This document shows, piece by piece, positions 959 through 5,671 of a stretch of 5,671 nucleotides of DNA (position 1 is its first letter; each line of letters starts with the position of its first letter). Source of the stretch: a virus (Duplodnaviria; Heunggongvirae; Uroviricota; Caudoviricetes); IMG/VR virus record IMGVR_UViG_2703718781_000017. One strand, written 5' to 3'. The position numbers were made by a program, and so were the translations under genes. The notes beneath the pieces were generated by a model. It did not search any database. It was not told where the DNA came from and saw only the letters and a program-made list of their open reading frames with translations.

Positions 959-1225
959 ATGCAAGCTGTTTTTTCTTCCCCGTCTCCCGCCCCTGTGACG
1001 CCACTGATGCCGCTGCCGGACATCACGCAGGAGCGTTTTTTACGTCTGCCGGAAGTGATGCACCTGTGCGGCCTGTCACGCTCGACCATCTACGAACTCA
1101 TCCGTAAGGGGGAATTTCCGCCGCAGGTGAGTCTTGGCGGTAAAAATGTGGCCTGGCTGCACTCTGAAGTCACCGCATGGATGGCCGGCCGCATTGCCGG
1201 ACGCAAACGGGGGTATGACGCATGA
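959..1225 (+). CDS. alpA: AlpA-family phage/island transcriptional regulator (helix-turn-helix, excisionase-like fold)
   Basis: Translation contains the hallmark AlpA motif [52 protein letters not shown] at 947..950 sits 8 nt upstream of the ATG at 959. An alternative start at the in-frame ATG 1007 would give the more typical ~72 aa length but lacks a Shine-Dalgarno. Stop TGA at 1223..1225. Confidence 0.85.
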
Positions 1226-1260
1226 TGATGCCCGCTCTGCAAAAACTCCCTTTTTCTGGC

Positions 1261-1290
1261 TTGCCTTTTTCCGGCATTTGCGGATATAGT
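1261..1290 (+). promoter_or_regulatory. Candidate sigma70 promoter in the leader downstream of alpA
   Basis: TTGCCT at 1261..1266, an 18-bp spacer, then TATAGT at 1285..1290. Predicted start near 1297. Sequence-only prediction. Confidence 0.3.
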
Positions 1291-1353
1291 CTTTCCGTTG
1301 CCGCAAAATCGGCAGCCGGGCGTGAGAACCCGTGTAGCTCGAAGGCGACATAT

Positions 1354-1375
1354 GACGCGCCATGCGTCTTTTTTT
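1354..1375 (+). terminator. Short hairpin plus T7 tract: candidate weak intrinsic terminator or attenuator
   Basis: GACGC (1354..1358) pairs with GCGTC (1364..1368) around a 5-nt loop, followed by seven T (1369..1375). The stem is only 5 bp. An outer pairing GCGACA (1345..1350) with TGTCGC (1377..1382) encloses the hairpin and T tract, suggesting alternative folds. It could terminate alpA transcription or a ~80 nt transcript from the 1261..1290 promoter. Confidence 0.35.
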
Positions 1376-1507
1376 GTGTCGCAATCAACGCCACAGAGCG
1401 CCAGATTATGGTGTGGCGTGTGGTTTGCCGTGCAGGTATGATCCTGTTCGCAATCGCATGTTATGCCACTGAGTCAATGGTAGCTCAGGCGGGGCAGCCT
1501 CCGGGCT

Positions 1508-1535
1508 GGCCGGTATTCTTCGAGGCCGGTATTCT
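1508..1535 (+). repeat. Perfect 12-bp tandem direct repeat GGCCGGTATTCT (period 16 bp)
   Basis: GGCCGGTATTCT at 1508..1519 and again at 1524..1535. It lies in the leader upstream of the first cassette gene and is followed by a 9-bp-stem hairpin (GCTATCGCC 1549..1557 pairing with GGCGATAGC 1576..1584) just before the ribosome-binding site of the 1615 gene. Confidence 0.8.
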
Positions 1536-1614
1536 CACCCCCGTCTGGGCTATCGCCATCGAGCGTGAGAACTCCGGCGATAGCAGTTATTTGCTACTCG
1601 AAGGAGGCTGCCTT

Positions 1615-1812
1615 ATGGCTACAACCCTTACCCCCTCACACCCTGAATTTGTCTTTGTGTTTGCGGCTGTCCGTCGCGCAGACCGTCATCCCCGTATCTG
1701 TATGCTTCGCACCGTCGCCGGTGATGAACGCAGTGCCCGCCGTTCCCTTGTCCGTGACTATGTGCTCTCCCTTGCTGCCCGTCTGCCGGTGGTGGAGGTG
1801 TCCCGTGCGTAA
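1615..1812 (+). CDS. Small hypothetical protein (65 aa), first gene of the alpA-to-primase cassette
   Basis: Strong AAGGAGG Shine-Dalgarno at 1601..1607 sits 7 nt before the ATG at 1615; stop TAA at 1810..1812. Product is [65 protein letters not shown]. Small proteins in this position of P4-like islands are often annotated as Icd-like, but I cannot confirm homology from sequence alone. The ORF-track version 1222..1812 would cross the promoter and terminator-like leader features and is unlikely to be translated in full. Confidence 0.6.
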
Positions 1813-2092
1813 TAAAAAAGCCCCTCAGACCGTCTCAGCGCGTCATGACGCCCGTGAACACCTCAGCATTGAGGCTTACCATAAGCTCAACCGCGCCAGC
1901 GCCGTATCCCAGTTTGTTGGGGGTGATTTGATTCACCGTGAACTCTCCGGCCTGCATCAGCTCTACATTCCGCATATTTTCAGCTACCTGAATGAAGATA
2001 TTGATTTTGTGCTGAATGAACTGAAAGCCAAAGGCCTGTGCCGCGATTTTCTCGCCCAGCAGAAAGACCGGGGAGACAGGACGCATGTTTGA
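1805..2092 (+). CDS. Hypothetical protein (~95 aa), probable GTG start, translationally coupled to the upstream gene
   Basis: GGAGG at 1794..1798 sits 6 nt upstream of GTG at 1805, which overlaps the TAA stop of the previous gene. The frame stays open to TGA at 2090..2092 and contains no in-frame ATG after 1805. The only ATG-initiated version (1565) would overlap the 1615 gene out of frame for 240 nt. Product is [95 protein letters not shown]. Confidence 0.5.
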
Positions 2093-2540
2093 TTTTCCCC
2101 AGCCCGGTGAGATTTACCGTTCTGCCGGTTTTCCCGATGTGGCCGTGGTCGGCATTCTGGAAGACGGTATTCCGTGGGAAATGCCGTACCGCTGCCCGGA
2201 AATTGTCTGGAACCCGTACCGCCGTAAATTCAGTATCCTTGTGCGTATCCTCGCTGACGGACGCACCACAGACATCCCGCTGGGGCGTTTTCTGCGGGAA
2301 TTTACCTGTGACCGTCCTGACCTGTTTAAACGCAGCCCCGTAAACCGGCATGCGGTACTGAAAGAAATGGCCGGAGACCCGGAATTACAGAAATGGCGGG
2401 AAAAATATCTGGATATTTACCCGCAGGACACTGTTCCGGTCAGCCGGGCAGCACCGGTGGCGCGGGAATGGCGGGAAATTCCCCGCACGGAGCCTGACCC
2501 GGAAACCACCCCGGATAACAGTTACCGCAATTATCTGTAA
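2085..2540 (+). CDS. Hypothetical protein (151 aa)
   Basis: ATG at 2085 overlaps the stop of the previous gene by 8 nt (ATGTTTGA), with GGAGA at 2071..2075 upstream. Clean 151-codon frame ending TAA at 2538..2540. Product begins [63 protein letters not shown]. No domain recognised by eye. Confidence 0.65.
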   Translation: MFDFPQPGEIYRSAGFPDVAVVGILEDGIPWEMPYRCPEIVWNPYRRKFSILVRILADGRTTDIPLGRFLREFTCDRPDLFKRSPVNRHAVLKEMAGDPELQKWREKYLDIYPQDTVPVSRAAPVAREWREIPRTEPDPETTPDNSYRNYL

Positions 2541-2568
2541 TTAAAAAACGACCCCCGAAAAATTAAAT

Positions 2569-2608
2569 GTGCGTATTCGCGCAGGGATACGCACGTCTTC
2601 AGGAGACG
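2569..2608 (+). promoter_or_regulatory. Tandem hairpins or inverted repeats in the intergenic gap between the 151-aa and 63-aa genes
   Basis: GTGCGTAT (2569..2576) pairs with ATACGCAC (2587..2594) around a 10-nt loop; immediately after, CGTCT (2594..2598) pairs with AGACG (2604..2608) around a 5-nt loop. No U tract follows, so this is not a canonical terminator. Candidate operator, RNA processing site or internal regulatory element. Confidence 0.35.
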
Positions 2609-2675
2609 CAGATATACCTTATCAGTTAATGCAACCGGCACGGAATGCAGTCATCTGTCACAGGGAGAAAAGCAA

Positions 2676-2867
2676 ATGAAAACACCCTTACCGCCCGTCT
2701 TACGCGCTGCCCTTTACCGTCGCGCTGTCGCCTGTGCCTGGCTGACCGTGTGCGAACGTCAGCACCGCTACCCGCATCTCACCCTTGAGTCACTGGAGGC
2801 GGCCATCGCCGCTGAGCTGGAAGGCTTTTATCTGCGCCAGCACGGTGAGGAAAAGGGCGTCAGATAG
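2676..2867 (+). CDS. Small hypothetical protein (63 aa)
   Basis: GGGAG at 2663..2667 sits 8 nt upstream of the ATG at 2676; stop TAG at 2865..2867. Product is [63 protein letters not shown]. Family not recognised. Confidence 0.55.
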
Positions 2868-2890
2868 CCTGTGCCCTGCTGGAAGATTTA

Positions 2891-2995
2891 ATGGAATCCG
2901 GCCCCCTGAAGGCCGCGCCGTCGCTGTCCTTTCTCGGGCTGGTTGTGATGGATGAACTCTGTGCCCGTCACATAAAAGCGCCGGTACTGCACTGA
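2891..2995 (+). CDS. Possible 34-codon upstream ORF whose stop overlaps the primase Shine-Dalgarno (speculative)
   Basis: ATG at 2891 to TGA at 2993..2995 ([34 protein letters not shown]). The stop abuts the AAGGAG at 2995..3000 that serves the primase ATG at 3010. No good ribosome-binding site of its own. Could be a leader peptide, a coupling ORF or non-coding. Confidence 0.2.
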
Positions 2996-3009
2996 AGGAG
3001 AACAACACC

Positions 3010-5343
3010 ATGAAAATGAACGTAACCGCCACCGTCAGCCATGCGCTCGGCCACTGGCCGCGTATTCTCCCGGCGCTGGGGATTCAGGTGCTGAAAAACC
3101 GTCATCAGCCCTGTCCGGTCTGTGGCGGGAGTGACCGCTTCCGTTTTGATGACAGGGAGGGGCGCGGCACCTGGTACTGCAATCAGTGTGGTGCCGGTGA
3201 CGGCCTGAAACTGGTTGAAAAGGTGTTTGGTGTTTCCCCGTCCGACGCGGCCGCAAAGGTGGCTGCCGTGACCGGCAGCCTGCCCACGGCTGACCCGGCA
3301 GTGACGGCCGCCGCCGGCGCTGAAACAGACGCTGCCCGGAAGAACGCCGCCGCACTGGCACAAACCCTGATGGCAAAAACCCGTCCCGGAACCGGTAACG
3401 CCTACCTGACCCGCAAGGGCTTTCCCGGCCGGGAATGCCGGATGCTGACCGGCACACACAGAGCCGGTGGCGTGAGCTGGCGCGCCGGTGACCTTGTGGT
3501 GCCACTGTATGACGACAGCGGCGAACTGGTTAACCTTCAGTTAATCAGTGCTGACGGCCGTAAGCGCACCCTGAAAGGCGGACAGGTCAGGGGCACCTGT
3601 CACACCCTTGAAGGACAGAATCAGGCCGGAAAACGTCTGTGGATAGCGGAGGGATACGCGACCGCACTTACCGTACATCACCTGACCGGTGAAACGGTGA
3701 TGGTGGCGCTTTCTTCCGTGAACCTCCTTTCTCTGGCCAGCCTTGCCCGGCAGAAGCATCCGGCCTGTCAGATTGTCCTTGCCGCAGACCGTGACCTCAG
3801 CGGTGACGGCCAGAAAAAAGCCGCCGCAGCCGCAGATGCGTGTGAGGGCGTTGTTGCCCTGCCGCCGGTCTTCGGTGACTGGAATGATGCCTTCACGCAG
3901 TACGGCGGGGAGGCCACCCGTAAGGCCATTTATGATGCCATCCGGCCACCGGCTGAAAGCCCGTTCGATACCATGAGCGAAGCGGAGTTTTCCGCCATGA
4001 GTACCAGCGAAAAGGCCATGCGTATCTATGAGCATTACGGCGAGGCGCTCGCGGTCGATGCCAACGGCCAGCTTCTGTCCCGCTATGAAAATGGTGTCTG
4101 GAAGGTGCTGCCGCCACAGGACTTTGCCCGGGATGTGGCCGGGCTGTTTCAGCGTCTGCGCGCGCCGTTCTCCTCCGGGAAGGTGGCCTCCGTGGTGGAC
4201 ACCCTGAAGCTGATTATTCCGCAGCAGGAAGCCCCCTCCCGCCGCCTGATTGGCTTTCGTAACGGCGTGCTCGACACGCAGAACGGCACGTTCCACCCGC
4301 ACAGTCCGTCACACTGGATGCGCACCCTGTGCGATGTGGATTTCACCCCGCCGGTGGACGGTGAAACGCTGGAGACCCACGCCCCCGCGTTCTGGCGCTG
4401 GCTTGACCGTGCCGCCGGTGGCCGTGCGGAAAAACGCGACGTGATTCTGGCCGCACTGTTTATGGTGCTGGCAAACCGCTACGACTGGCAGCTCTTTCTG
4501 GAGGTGACCGGTCCCGGCGGCAGCGGCAAAAGTATCATGGCCGAAATAGCCACCCTGCTGGCCGGGGAGGATAACGCCACGTCGGCCACCATCGAGACGC
4601 TGGAATCCCCGCGTGAACGTGCCGCGTTAACTGGCTTCTCACTGATACGCCTGCCGGACCAGGAAAAATGGAGCGGCGACGGAGCCGGACTCAAGGCCAT
4701 CACCGGCGGCGATGCGGTGTCCGTTGACCCGAAATACCGGGATGCGTACTCCACGCATATCCCGGCGGTGATTCTGGCCGTGAACAATAACCCGATGCGC
4801 TTCACCGACCGCAGCGGCGGCGTGTCACGCCGGCGGGTGATTATTCACTTCCCGGAACAGATAGCCCCGCAGGAGCGCGACCCGCAGCTTAAGGACAAAA
4901 TCACCCGCGAGCTGGCGGTCATCGTGCGTCACCTGATGCAGAAGTTCAGCGACCCGATGCTCGCCCGGTCACTGCTTCAGTCCCAGCAGAACTCAGACGA
5001 GGCACTGAACATCAAACGGGATGCCGACCCGACGTTTGATTTTATCGGCTATCTGGAAACCCTGCCGCAGACCAGCGGCATGTATATGGGGAACGCCAGT
5101 ATCATCCCGCGTAATTACCGTAAATACCTCTATCACGCCTATCTGGCCTACATGGAGGCAAACGGCTACCGGAATGTACTCAGTCTGAAAATGTTCGGGC
5201 TGGGGCTGCCGGTGATGCTGAAGGAATACGGACTGAATTACGAGAAGCGCCATACCAAACAGGGGATACAGACCAACCTGACGCTGAAAGAGGAAAGCTA
5301 CGGCGACTGGCTGCCAAAATGTGACGACCCTGCAACAGCCTGA
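3010..5343 (+). CDS. P4 alpha-type multifunctional replication protein: primase (zinc ribbon plus Toprim), helicase with P-loop NTPase, and C-terminal origin-binding region
   Basis: 777-codon ORF with AAGGAG at 2995..3000, 9 nt before the ATG. Zinc-ribbon signature CPVCGG-x18-CNQCG (aa 35..60, nt about 3112..3189). Toprim motifs WIAEGYATAL (Glu 214, nt about 3649) and AADRDLSGDG (Asp 260 and 262, nt about 3787..3795). Walker A GPGGSGKS at aa 501..508 (nt 4510..4533). The C-terminal ~150 aa are unassigned and by analogy with P4 alpha should bind the TGTTCACC iterons. Stop TGA at 5341..5343. Confidence 0.95.
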   Translation: MKMNVTATVSHALGHWPRILPALGIQVLKNRHQPCPVCGGSDRFRFDDREGRGTWYCNQCGAGDGLKLVEKVFGVSPSDAAAKVAAVTGSLPTADPAVTAAAGAETDAARKNAAALAQTLMAKTRPGTGNAYLTRKGFPGRECRMLTGTHRAGGVSWRAGDLVVPLYDDSGELVNLQLISADGRKRTLKGGQVRGTCHTLEGQNQAGKRLWIAEGYATALTVHHLTGETVMVALSSVNLLSLASLARQKHPACQIVLAADRDLSGDGQKKAAAAADACEGVVALPPVFGDWNDAFTQYGGEATRKAIYDAIRPPAESPFDTMSEAEFSAMSTSEKAMRIYEHYGEALAVDANGQLLSRYENGVWKVLPPQDFARDVAGLFQRLRAPFSSGKVASVVDTLKLIIPQQEAPSRRLIGFRNGVLDTQNGTFHPHSPSHWMRTLCDVDFTPPVDGETLETHAPAFWRWLDRAAGGRAEKRDVILAALFMVLANRYDWQLFLEVTGPGGSGKSIMAEIATLLAGEDNATSATIETLESPRERAALTGFSLIRLPDQEKWSGDGAGLKAITGGDAVSVDPKYRDAYSTHIPAVILAVNNNPMRFTDRSGGVSRRRVIIHFPEQIAPQERDPQLKDKITRELAVIVRHLMQKFSDPMLARSLLQSQQNSDEALNIKRDADPTFDFIGYLETLPQTSGMYMGNASIIPRNYRKYLYHAYLAYMEANGYRNVLSLKMFGLGLPVMLKEYGLNYEKRHTKQGIQTNLTLKEESYGDWLPKCDDPATA

Positions 5344-5390: not shown

Positions 5391-5671
5391 GAAGGTGAAC
5401 AATCCACTGTTCACCCTTCACCGTATATTCACCCGTTATCACACTGAAATTAAAAGAGAAAAACGAAAGGTGAACAGTGTGAACAATCAAATCAAAAAAA
5501 ACTTTTTTCTTCCGGTGTGATTTCAGCACGGGAAATTAATCCCCTGCACAAGTCACACCGGCAGAATGCCGGAGGTGAAGAATCGAATGTTCACCCTTCA
5601 CCCATTATTCACCACCTATCACTATGAAATAAAATGAGAAAACAGAAAGGTGAACAGTGTGAACAGTTCTT
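5391..5671. repeat. crr-like cis replication region: two ~100 bp imperfect direct repeats spaced 180 bp apart, each carrying TGTTCACC and GGTGAACA iterons
   Basis: Unit 1 (5391..5488) and unit 2 (5571..5668) align at roughly 80 percent identity with a 180-bp offset. Exact octamers: GGTGAACA at 5394..5401, 5469..5476 and 5649..5656; TGTTCACC at 5408..5415 and 5588..5595. Degenerate copies include CTTCACC, ATTCACC, GGTGAAGA and GTGTGAACA. A GC hairpin precedes each unit (5351..5368 and 5558..5572). The window ends inside or just after unit 2. Confidence 0.75.

Follow-up and report, generated by a model that had tools for sequence, protein, structure and literature searches.

A four-gene cassette between alpA and the primase gene of an Escherichia coli satellite prophage corresponds to kil, epsilon, orf151 and cnr of phage P4

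The left operon of the satellite phage P4 (X51522 / NC_001609) carries, in order, orf88(vis), eta/kil, the cI RNA, epsilon, orf151, orf106(cnr) and alpha. Kil is a truncated form of Eta that is translated from an internal start; the relationship between eta and Kil, the CI RNA and the coupling to alpA have been described (PMC10111431), and overexpression of P4 Kil kills the cell (literature cited in PMC10111431). The E protein is an anti-repressor that binds the C repressor of the helper P2 (PMC2995052; the function of epsilon is also taken from PMC7552001). Typical P4-like satellites of Enterobacterales have the core order alpA, eta/kil, cnr and alpha (Moura de Sousa and Rocha 2021, PMC8628076). 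In the comparison made here, the majority of these satellites had a 75-aa gene but neither epsilon nor orf151; in the P4 lineage, epsilon and orf151 are present, and a deletion of about 195 bp has removed the 75-aa gene. Related immunity regions occur in P1/P7 (immI: c4 antisense RNA, icd, ant) and in N15 and PY54 (cA-icd-ant). There, the leader of the operon itself is processed to a C4-family RNA that base-pairs at the ribosome-binding site of a small Icd-like gene, and the anti-repressor encoded downstream is expressed only if this gene is translated.

The window examined here (the whole stretch of 5,671 nucleotides) shared the core order of the P4-like satellites, belonged with the P4 lineage in having epsilon and orf151 but not the 75-aa gene, and resembled P1/P7, N15 and PY54 in its leader-derived RNA and its target. 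We conclude with high confidence (probability about 0.93) that the cassette at 1615-2867 forms the central part of the left (early/replication) operon of an E. coli P4-type satellite prophage, arranged alpA(vis), eta/kil, epsilon, orf151, cnr and alpha. The genes and flanking features, all on the plus strand, were as follows.

959-1225, +, alpA / P4 orf88, a Vis-type HTH regulator (Pfam Phage_AlpA, 7.3e-21; 87/88 residues identical to P4 ORF88)
1222-1812, +, eta, a 196-aa ORF with an N-terminal Ash-family domain, the final 65 codons being kil
1615-1812, +, ORF1, 65 aa, ATG start, assigned to P4 kil
1805-2092, +, ORF2, 95 aa, GTG start, assigned to P4 epsilon (E)
2085-2540, +, ORF3, 151 aa, ATG start, assigned to P4 ORF151
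2541-2675, +, conserved leader with a hairpin, followed by a deletion remnant (from alignment with three other genera)
2676-2867, +, ORF4, 63 aa, ATG start, assigned to the 5' part of P4 orf106 / cnr (DUF5375)
2868-2995, +, out-of-frame 3' part of cnr, codons 62-106 of the intact gene, DNA 100% identical to P4
3010-5343, +, alpha primase-helicase (Pfam Zn_Ribbon_Prim, Toprim_3, D5_N and Pox_D5; phrog_2249, 6.6e-242), the last gene of the operon and the target of Cnr regulation

When the window was compared with P4, the DNA from 1200 to 3010 was 97.0% identical with 100% coverage, and gene annotations, gene order and stop/start overlaps were equal. The sequence-only reading had described four ORFs in the slot that holds epsilon and accessory ORFs in P4, the first three of them overlapping; both points were borne out, and the slot held the very P4 genes. 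ORF1 and ORF2 overlapped by 8 nt at 1805-1812 (GTGCGTAA), and ORF2 and ORF3 by 8 nt at 2085-2092 (ATGTTTGA). A plausible Shine-Dalgarno sequence preceded every start, for example GGAGG at 1603-1607 for ORF1 and at 1793-1797 for ORF2. Protein identity to P4 was 99-100%: 65/65 residues in Kil, 94/95 in epsilon, 150/151 in ORF151 and 61/61 in Cnr up to a frameshift. Epsilon and ORF151 differed by one conservative substitution each (Q36R and E39D, respectively); the DNA from alpA to kil was somewhat more diverged, and the N-terminal part of Eta differed at many residues. Repeats of TGTTCACC, with 11 occurrences against 0.27 expected, lay at the P4 ori and crr positions and flank the region in both elements. 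The entire window was 99.9% identical to a P4-type prophage of E. coli O145 that encodes int, psu, delta, sid, alpA, an Icd-like protein, two hypothetical proteins, a DUF5375 protein and a primase. Whereas cnr is intact in P4, it is frameshifted in the window, which is a copy of the integrated chromosomal prophage type and not the laboratory phage. dN/dS against orthologues from other genera ranged from 0.10 to 0.32 over all four genes, a sign of purifying selection, indicating that the four ORFs are real genes and not chance. No evidence contradicting the P4 identification was found. Judged by their sequences, the four genes are thus already known, being near-identical copies of P4 kil, epsilon, orf151 and cnr; because of this near-identity, the operon is a textbook one in which ORF151 alone lacks a known function.

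The coupled chain of the operon began at alpA, since its TGA stop (1223-1225) overlapped the eta ATG (1222-1224) in the ATGA at 1222-1225. The 196-aa Eta matched Pfam Phage_ASH (2.7e-21, residues 22-143), and the exact protein was present on 373 contigs; in public genomes it is labelled 'host cell division inhibitor Icd-like' or 'ash family protein'. ORF1 lay in frame with eta and formed its 3' end. It matched the NCBIfam phage_ICD_like family (NF033153) at 76.1 bits (cut-off 25; E 1.6e-21) and agreed with the C-terminal end of the P4 ORF at all 65 residues. The suspicion that an Icd-like or Ash-like protein was encoded here was therefore well founded for both ORF1 and the enclosing eta. ORF1 showed the marks of Kil, namely the family profile, nesting within eta and an adjoining C4 RNA complementary to its ribosome-binding site. 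Its homologues N15 gp32 and PY54 icd, found by tblastn, also adjoin C4-type RNAs. The kil dN/dS was 0.14-0.20 against orthologues from other genera. We assign ORF1 to P4 kil, which would encode an Icd-like polypeptide that is toxic when overexpressed.

It could be argued that ORF1 exists only as the C-terminus of Eta, without separate translation, and that the 65-aa gene is an annotation artefact: ORF1 lies inside eta in the same frame, and in the O145 prophage the NCBI pipeline (PGAP) annotates the 196-aa ORF only. However, the ATG at 1615 is preceded, 8 nt upstream, by a strong GGAGG, and that GGAGG is precisely the site complementary to the CI RNA, a complementarity that makes sense only if initiation at this ATG is regulated. 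The 65-aa product was moreover called as a separate protein on at least 1000 contigs, the Met and the length of 65 codons were kept in six other genera, and P4 Kil is translated from an internal start in eta (PMC10111431). We consider the artefact unlikely and retain ORF1 as kil.

The RNA and control elements upstream of kil were as follows.

1261-1290, +, sigma-70-like promoter in eta (TTGCCT, 18-nt spacer, TATAGT)
1284-1336, +, c4-a1b1, upstream target/leader element of the immunity RNA (Rfam RF03163, 50.3 bits, above the gathering score)
1297-1374, +, isrK-like RNA, upstream leader element (Rfam RF01394, 65.5 bits, above the gathering score)
1354-1375, +, terminator-like hairpin and T-run, within the region 1284-1374
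1473-1560, +, CI immunity RNA of the C4 antisense RNA family (Rfam RF01695, 74.3 bits, gathering score 45, E 1.1e-13, full-length model match)
1597-1614, +, kil translation-initiation region (seqC-type target), complementary to two CI segments and including GGAGG 1603-1607

The C4-family RNA and its target sites sit within the eta ORF. This RNA, the 196-aa eta ORF and the truncation of ORF4 had all been missed in the sequence-only reading. Pairing between CI and the kil region was found by an ungapped helix search: CI 1491-1502 (GGGGCAGCCTCC) paired with 1603-1614 (GGAGGCTGCCTT) over 12 bp, 10 of them Watson-Crick, and CI 1516-1524 paired with 1597-1605 over 9 bp. An RNAduplex scan gave only uninformative long-loop duplexes. 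The promoter at 1261-1290 was the sole promoter-like site between 700 and 3100, and a single consensus match was not above shuffle expectation; its assignment therefore rests on position and literature (PMC10111431). Its position fits a putative equivalent of the constitutive P4 promoter PLE, which drives the immunity RNA and kil.

ORF2 matched Pfam PF25738 Derepression over all 95 of its positions (1-95/95; 170.3 bits, cut-off 27; 7.7e-51). The exact allele with Q36R occurred on at least 1000 contigs, and the dN/dS of epsilon was 0.12-0.26 against orthologues from other genera. ORF2 is assigned to P4 epsilon, the predicted anti-repressor of the helper P2 C repressor. This sets the window apart from P1: epsilon shares no relationship with P1 Ant, and its target is the repressor of another element, the helper P2. 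Unlike in P1/P7 immI, a longer Ash-family ORF encloses the coding sequence of the Icd-like peptide, and the operon runs on into cnr and alpha.

ORF4 comprised residues 1-61 of a gene for 106 aa, followed by two out-of-frame residues. Alignment with P4 and O145 showed that one A had been lost from an A5 run (2851-2854), with a TAG stop at 2865-2867; in the next frame, the other 45 codons ran on unbroken to 2995, before the alpha start at 3010. ORF4 matched Pfam DUF5375 at 1.2e-33 over only 1-62 of 106 profile positions, so the match was not full-length. Since the DNA was otherwise identical to P4, ORF4 is a disrupted copy of cnr and not a different gene. It lay directly upstream of the alpha primase gene, a layout found in 74/80 related loci. 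We take orf106 to be P4 cnr, in line with the agreement between this frequency and the published one. For the family containing P4 cnr, the published frequency is 90%, and cnr is described there as controlling plasmid copy number and as sitting between epsilon and alpha (PMC8628076).

The 63-aa product might be a functional short Cnr, neither pseudogene nor sequencing error. It was called in exactly this form on 46 contigs, and its intact first 61 residues bear the best-conserved N-terminal motif of DUF5375. The A4 allele, however, was carried by just 2 of 1001 complete E. coli genomes with the locus, both apparently one strain; the other 999 differ from it, as do the A5-bearing P4 and O145. 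The same A4 allele in NZ_CM144236.1 is annotated as 'frameshifted' (a pseudogene) by the NCBI pipeline. The C-terminal half of cnr was conserved as well as the N-terminal half across genera, with a dN/dS of 0.10-0.17 for the whole gene, and the change sits in a homopolymer, a typical site of errors and slippage. A functional short Cnr is accordingly very unlikely. Because the frameshift removes the 45 conserved C-terminal residues, the cnr of the window is probably non-functional, unless a sequencing error in the homopolymer accounts for the missing A. We rejected programmed frameshifting at this run, because its shortened form occurred in only 2/1001 complete genomes and intact 106-aa forms predominate in public data.

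Among 80 loci of related elements, kil was present in 77, cnr in 74, epsilon in 8 and orf151 in 9; kil and cnr are core genes, and epsilon and orf151 form an optional linked pair. A 75-aa gene (phrog_10110) lay between kil and cnr in 64 of these loci. In the window, alignment with three other genera placed a conserved leader and, after it, the remnant of the deletion of about 195 bp of this gene at 2541-2675. The arms of the leader hairpin were GTGCGTAT (2569-2576) and ATACGCAC (2587-2594). Folding of the region 2535-2680 gave a z of -1.2, which was not significant by energy alone; interest in it rests on sequence conservation. ORF2 matched the 76-aa phrog_3688 weakly, which prompted the idea that the 75-aa gene is a short epsilon homologue. 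This was ruled out: the 75-aa protein is phrog_10110, without a Derepression match, and against epsilon it gave a BLASTP E of 18 and an hhalign probability of 1% with family alignments. Coupling through stop/start overlaps was conserved in other genera, in keeping with the earlier proposal of translational coupling.

These distributions also bear on the idea that the slot holds a variable cassette of four accessory genes with undescribed roles in helper exploitation, host takeover or anti-defence. It is true that ORF151 matched nothing in Pfam, NCBIfam or PADLOC, that no paper on it turned up in the literature searched, and that the epsilon/orf151 part of the slot is variable, the pair being found in only 8-9/80 loci. 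However, kil, epsilon and cnr have names and roles on record in P4, so that the absence of recognisable motifs claimed from the sequence alone held for ORF151 only. Variability does not extend to kil and cnr, and, with E values up to 1 allowed, none of the four proteins matched a defence-system profile in PADLOC, leaving the suggested anti-defence role without a match. Homology to characterised P4 proteins, which had been named as the finding that would overturn the proposal, was obtained for kil, epsilon and cnr, and ORF151 was homologous to an uncharacterised P4 protein. An undescribed accessory cassette is therefore most improbable, and the middle of the P4 left operon stands as the reading of this locus.

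ORF3 matched phrog_10748 at 2e-101 with 151/151 positions covered, and the dN/dS of orf151 was 0.18-0.32 against orthologues from other genera. An exhaustive profile search of 1.84 billion representatives returned only 30 proteins, nearly all of them from the narrow ORF151 family or fragments; ORF151 is confined to a narrow family in Enterobacterales. Full-text searches for orf151, orf106 and DUF5375 matched unrelated organisms only. In a structural model of moderate confidence (pLDDT 66), residues 1-110 formed a small beta-barrel with helices, and the tail was disordered. The fold predicted by this model is a generic SH3/Tudor-like barrel only. Searches against PDB sequence profiles gave SH3-like matches to eL21 only, which were insignificant. 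The likeness to DUF1653 and to the Tudor/SH3-like barrels of CarD, Mfd and UvrD/PcrA, which are RNA-polymerase-interacting domains, was at fold level alone, with 6-24% identity, no sequence-profile match and the same pLDDT 66 model. The alignment of ORF151 proteins showed two conserved motifs, an insert GIPWxMPYRCPxxVWNPYR and a C-terminal PDNSYRxYL. The most conserved segment, residues 28-46, was a low-confidence loop in the model and has no counterpart in the CarD/Mfd/UvrD/PcrA-type domains.

orf151 lay between an epsilon-type gene and cnr in the window, in related loci (L014, L024, L040, L042 and L046) and in Serratia and Hafnia contigs. Its place after an epsilon-type gene held even in Serratia islands whose primase backbone differs. 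In one locus (L038), another small ORF occupies the epsilon slot before orf151. Translational coupling, the near-exclusive place right after an epsilon-type gene and purifying selection link ORF151 to epsilon, and we tentatively suggest, as a possibility we regard as doubtful, that ORF151 is a helper-exploitation factor acting together with epsilon. The modelled barrel, with its conserved insert and C-terminal tail, could dock onto a helper or host partner, e.g., a helper regulator or RNA polymerase.

The operon may work in the following way. In the immune state, the constitutive promoter within eta would give a leader transcript from which the CI RNA is processed (processing known from the literature). 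CI would pair with the kil Shine-Dalgarno region, for which the complementarity is present here; translation of kil would be blocked, transcription would terminate (also from the literature), and epsilon, orf151, cnr and alpha would stay silent. When transcription starts further upstream, ribosomes would translate alpA and then eta via the overlapping stop and start codons. This translation would prevent termination (anti-termination as in the literature), and the 8-nt overlaps would then lead on to epsilon and orf151. Kil would act as an Icd-like peptide, toxic upon overexpression; epsilon would bind the helper P2 C repressor, and the helper prophage would be derepressed; ORF151 may work with or alongside epsilon. 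Cnr, frameshifted in the window, would bind the alpha protein and restrain the copy number of the P4 plasmid, as it reportedly does.

The locus offers little discovery value: no regulatory operon of the founding phage satellite has been studied more thoroughly, and published functions exist for three of its four cassette genes. ORF151, by contrast, is a decades-old orphan in a model system, and its tight synteny to an anti-repressor means that a knockout or an interaction experiment on it would be inexpensive and well defined. If the rare cnr frameshift is real, this element would be expected to have lost the stable plasmid state. The comparison across genera shows that epsilon and orf151 move together, as a pair set into an otherwise conserved kil - orf75 - cnr backbone, and that orf75 was lost from the P4 lineage.

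The four small genes between alpA and the alpha primase were identified, from their identity with phage P4 and their family matches, as kil (ORF1), epsilon (ORF2), orf151 (ORF3) and a frameshifted cnr (ORF4); the sequence-only reading had presented them as an uncharacterised cassette, which proved incorrect. Its coordinates and lengths for the four ORFs were exact, as were the ORF1/ORF2 and ORF2/ORF3 overlaps, each of 8 nt (GTGCGTAA at 1805-1812 and ATGTTTGA at 2085-2092).

Small genes between alpA and the alpha primase
1615-1812, + strand, ORF1 (kil), 65 aa, ATG start
1805-2092, + strand, ORF2 (epsilon), 95 aa, GTG start
2085-2540, + strand, ORF3 (orf151), 151 aa, ATG start
2676-2867, + strand, ORF4 (truncated cnr), 63 aa, ATG start

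Phage P4 (X51522, NC_001609) was 97.0% identical to window positions 1200-3010 with 100% of the length aligned, and its annotation gave, in the same order, ORF88, a legacy 'cI/ash 137 aa' ORF, epsilon (95 aa), ORF151, ORF106 and alpha. ORF1 was the C-terminal 65 residues of the corresponding P4 ORF (65/65 identical); ORF2 differed from P4 epsilon by Q36R (94/95 identical) and ORF3 from P4 ORF151 by E39D (150/151), and ORF4 was equal to P4 ORF106 over the first 61 residues and diverged afterwards. An Icd-like or Ash-like member, suspected earlier, was indeed present: ORF1 matched NCBIfam phage_ICD_like (1.6e-21), and eta, the 196-aa ORF (1222-1812) that contains ORF1, matched Pfam Phage_ASH at residues 22-143 (2.7e-21). 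The whole of ORF2 matched Pfam PF25738 'Derepression' (7.7e-51), the sole family match of ORF3 was phrog_10748 (2e-101), and ORF4 covered positions 1-62 of the 106 in the DUF5375 profile, compared with 1-106 for the intact P4 protein. Epsilon binds the P2 C repressor, by which the helper prophage is derepressed (PMC2995052; PMC7552001). The non-conservation that the sequence-only reading had said would count against it was not seen across Intestinirhabdus, Kluyvera, Buttiauxella, Citrobacter and Cedecea, in whose orthologues the frames were kept open; dN/dS was 0.14-0.20 for ORF1, 0.12-0.26 for ORF2 and 0.18-0.32 for ORF3, and 0.10-0.17 for the intact form of ORF4 in cross-genus orthologues. 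ORF1-ORF4 are real genes.

Over its entire length the window shared 99.9% identity with a P4-type prophage in the chromosome of E. coli O145 strains; this prophage carries an integrase, a DEAD/DEAH helicase and a hypothetical protein, psu, delta, sid, alpA, an Icd-like gene, two hypothetical proteins, DUF5375 and a primase. The P4 replicon repeat TGTTCACC occurred 11 times in the window against 0.27 expected, in clusters at 577-680 and 5394-5656 that match P4 ori and crr (alpha-binding sites); the window therefore contains a complete P4-type replicon. In the O145 strain RM9872 (L003, 4874-7164), the int-psu interval, a position published as a hotspot for anti-phage defence in P4-like satellites, held two genes, one for the DEAD/DEAH-box helicase (623 aa) and one for a hypothetical protein of 140 aa. 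Three contigs filed as metagenome-assembled genomes named Ferruginibacter, Clostridiales and 'bacterium' (L004, L005, L006) encoded proteins 99-100% identical to the alpha primase of the window, an E. coli P4-type element, and their labels most likely reflect binning contamination.

Regulatory elements were located inside eta, upstream of ORF1, and the three RNA matches all fell within this long ORF.

Regulatory elements upstream of ORF1
1261-1290, sigma-70-like site just upstream of the c4-a1b1, isrK and C4 RNAs, the sole such site in the region
1284-1336, + strand, c4-a1b1 target element (Rfam, above gathering score)
1297-1374, + strand, isrK-like RNA (Rfam, above gathering score)
1473-1560, + strand, C4-family antisense RNA (CI; Rfam, full-length, 74.3 bits, gathering score 45)

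CI positions 1491-1502 were complementary to 1603-1614, which run from the GGAGG Shine-Dalgarno sequence through the base before the ORF1 ATG, and a second segment (1516-1524) was complementary to 1597-1605 in the same initiation region. The isrK-like RNA ended, between the upstream target site and CI, in a hairpin and T-run (1354-1375) resembling an intrinsic terminator. In P4 (PMC10111431), transcription from a constitutive promoter within eta ends early, and the transcript is processed to CI. Kil, a shortened version of Eta, is lethal to cells. Full-length Eta is made only when transcription comes from the late promoter upstream, with coupling to the alpA homologue; its translation prevents termination, which allows expression of the downstream genes. 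The CI/kil arrangement in the window is this circuit, and all four genes belong to the canonical left operon of P4, with its canonical immunity control by CI RNA. The alpA stop and eta start overlapped in an ATGA (1222-1225), as the circuit requires. Translational coupling therefore runs from alpA through eta/kil and epsilon to orf151, a longer chain than the one proposed earlier for ORF1-ORF3. The layout paralleled those of the P1/P7 immI operon (c4, icd, ant) and of the N15 and PY54 regions, whose Icd-like genes were matched by ORF1 in tblastn.

Genes were scored by tblastn in 80 loci anchored on the alpha primase, with one genome per species. AlpA, the Eta N-terminal part, Kil (77/80) and Cnr (74/80) were found nearly everywhere, with epsilon in only 8 and ORF151 in 9 of the 80. 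Usually kil was followed directly by a 75-aa gene, orf75 (phrog_10110; 64/80 loci), overlapping kil at its stop and cnr at its start (for example L007); its product evidently corresponds to the '75-aa protein absent from P4' described in PMC8628076. Elements with epsilon and orf151 had the order kil, epsilon, orf151, a conserved leader, orf75 and cnr; P4 and the window kept the leader and lost about 195 bp of orf75 (window 2541-2675, compared with L014 4340-4668, L024 and L046). The leader was about 90% identical across genera, above the flanking coding DNA, and with its hairpin (2569-2594) is a candidate terminator, processing site or promoter. The most divergent ORF151 homologues, from Serratia (43-46% identity) and Hafnia (62%), had a PF25738 gene immediately upstream and DUF5375 downstream. 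The Serratia islands had a different primase type (Zn_Ribbon_Prim + Toprim_3 + DUF927, about 893 aa), and the epsilon-orf151-DUF5375 block is therefore common to distinct satellite backbones. Contigs of Serratia marcescens and S. fonticola (L085, L087) carried this block in islands ordered int, alpA and a 201-aa ORF. One exception was an uncultured Cedecea locus (L038, 3496-3915), in which ORF151 was kept and epsilon was replaced by a small ORF unrelated to it. The product of this ORF may be an anti-repressor directed at another helper. This ORF also ended in ...SHV and overlapped the orf151 start.

Within cnr, which we take to be orf106, the window differed from P4 and the O145 prophage once (GAGGAAAAAGGG to GAGGAAAAGGG). 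The A run at 2851-2854 was A4 rather than A5, and this 1-base deletion frameshifts the gene to a TAG at 2865-2867; the other 45 codons continued in the next frame to 2995, 100% identical to P4. Only 2 of the 1001 complete E. coli genomes with the cnr stretch were identical to the window over it, both apparently one strain, and in one of them the NCBI pipeline labelled cnr 'frameshifted'. The exact 63-aa product was called on 46 public contigs, indicating either that the A4 allele has arisen repeatedly or that it is carried by a small lineage; it may represent a genuine but rare pseudogene, or a sequencing error that recurs at the homopolymer. The truncated Cnr is probably inactive, because the two halves of the intact protein, including the lost C-terminal one, were equally conserved across genera. 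Cnr action reportedly goes through the alpha protein, in work attributed to Terzano in 1994 and Ziegelin in 1997. The equation of cnr with orf106 was corroborated by the locus counts for DUF5375 (74/80) and ORF151 (9/80), set against a cnr-containing family in 90% of P4-like elements; P4 cnr controls plasmid copy number and is located between epsilon and alpha (PMC8628076).

Public-protein matches of ORF151 were only Enterobacterales 'hypothetical proteins', and a profile search run exhaustively against 1.84 billion representatives returned 30 proteins, nearly all from the same family or fragments thereof. In its alignment the N-terminus (MFDFPQPGE) was very conserved; GIPWxMPYRCPxxVWNPYR (residues 28-46) and, beyond a variable linker, the C-terminal PDNSYRxYL (residues 143-151) were also conserved. 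The AlphaFold model was of moderate quality (pLDDT 66, pTM 0.59), with five strands then four helices at residues 10-109 and predicted disorder at 113-151. The most conserved parts fell in a predicted low-confidence loop (28-46) and at the extreme C-terminus after the variable, predicted disordered linker (143-151), a pattern typical of partner-docking motifs. One 151-aa homologue (P0157) had systematic P-to-F/L and R-to-C/W replacements throughout, as expected from pervasive C-to-T DNA changes (damage, deamination or a bisulfite-type library) and not from evolution. On a single short contig, a 244-aa protein (P0076) joined PF25738 to full ORF151 at 99% identity, probably by a frameshift at the ATGTTTGA overlap, and three others (P0114, P0119, P0173) were ORF151 fragments fused to Pox_D5 or DUF5375 segments. 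The most reasonable guess would be a joint role of ORF151 and epsilon in helper exploitation, because orf151 is tightly syntenic with the anti-repressor gene and translationally coupled to it.
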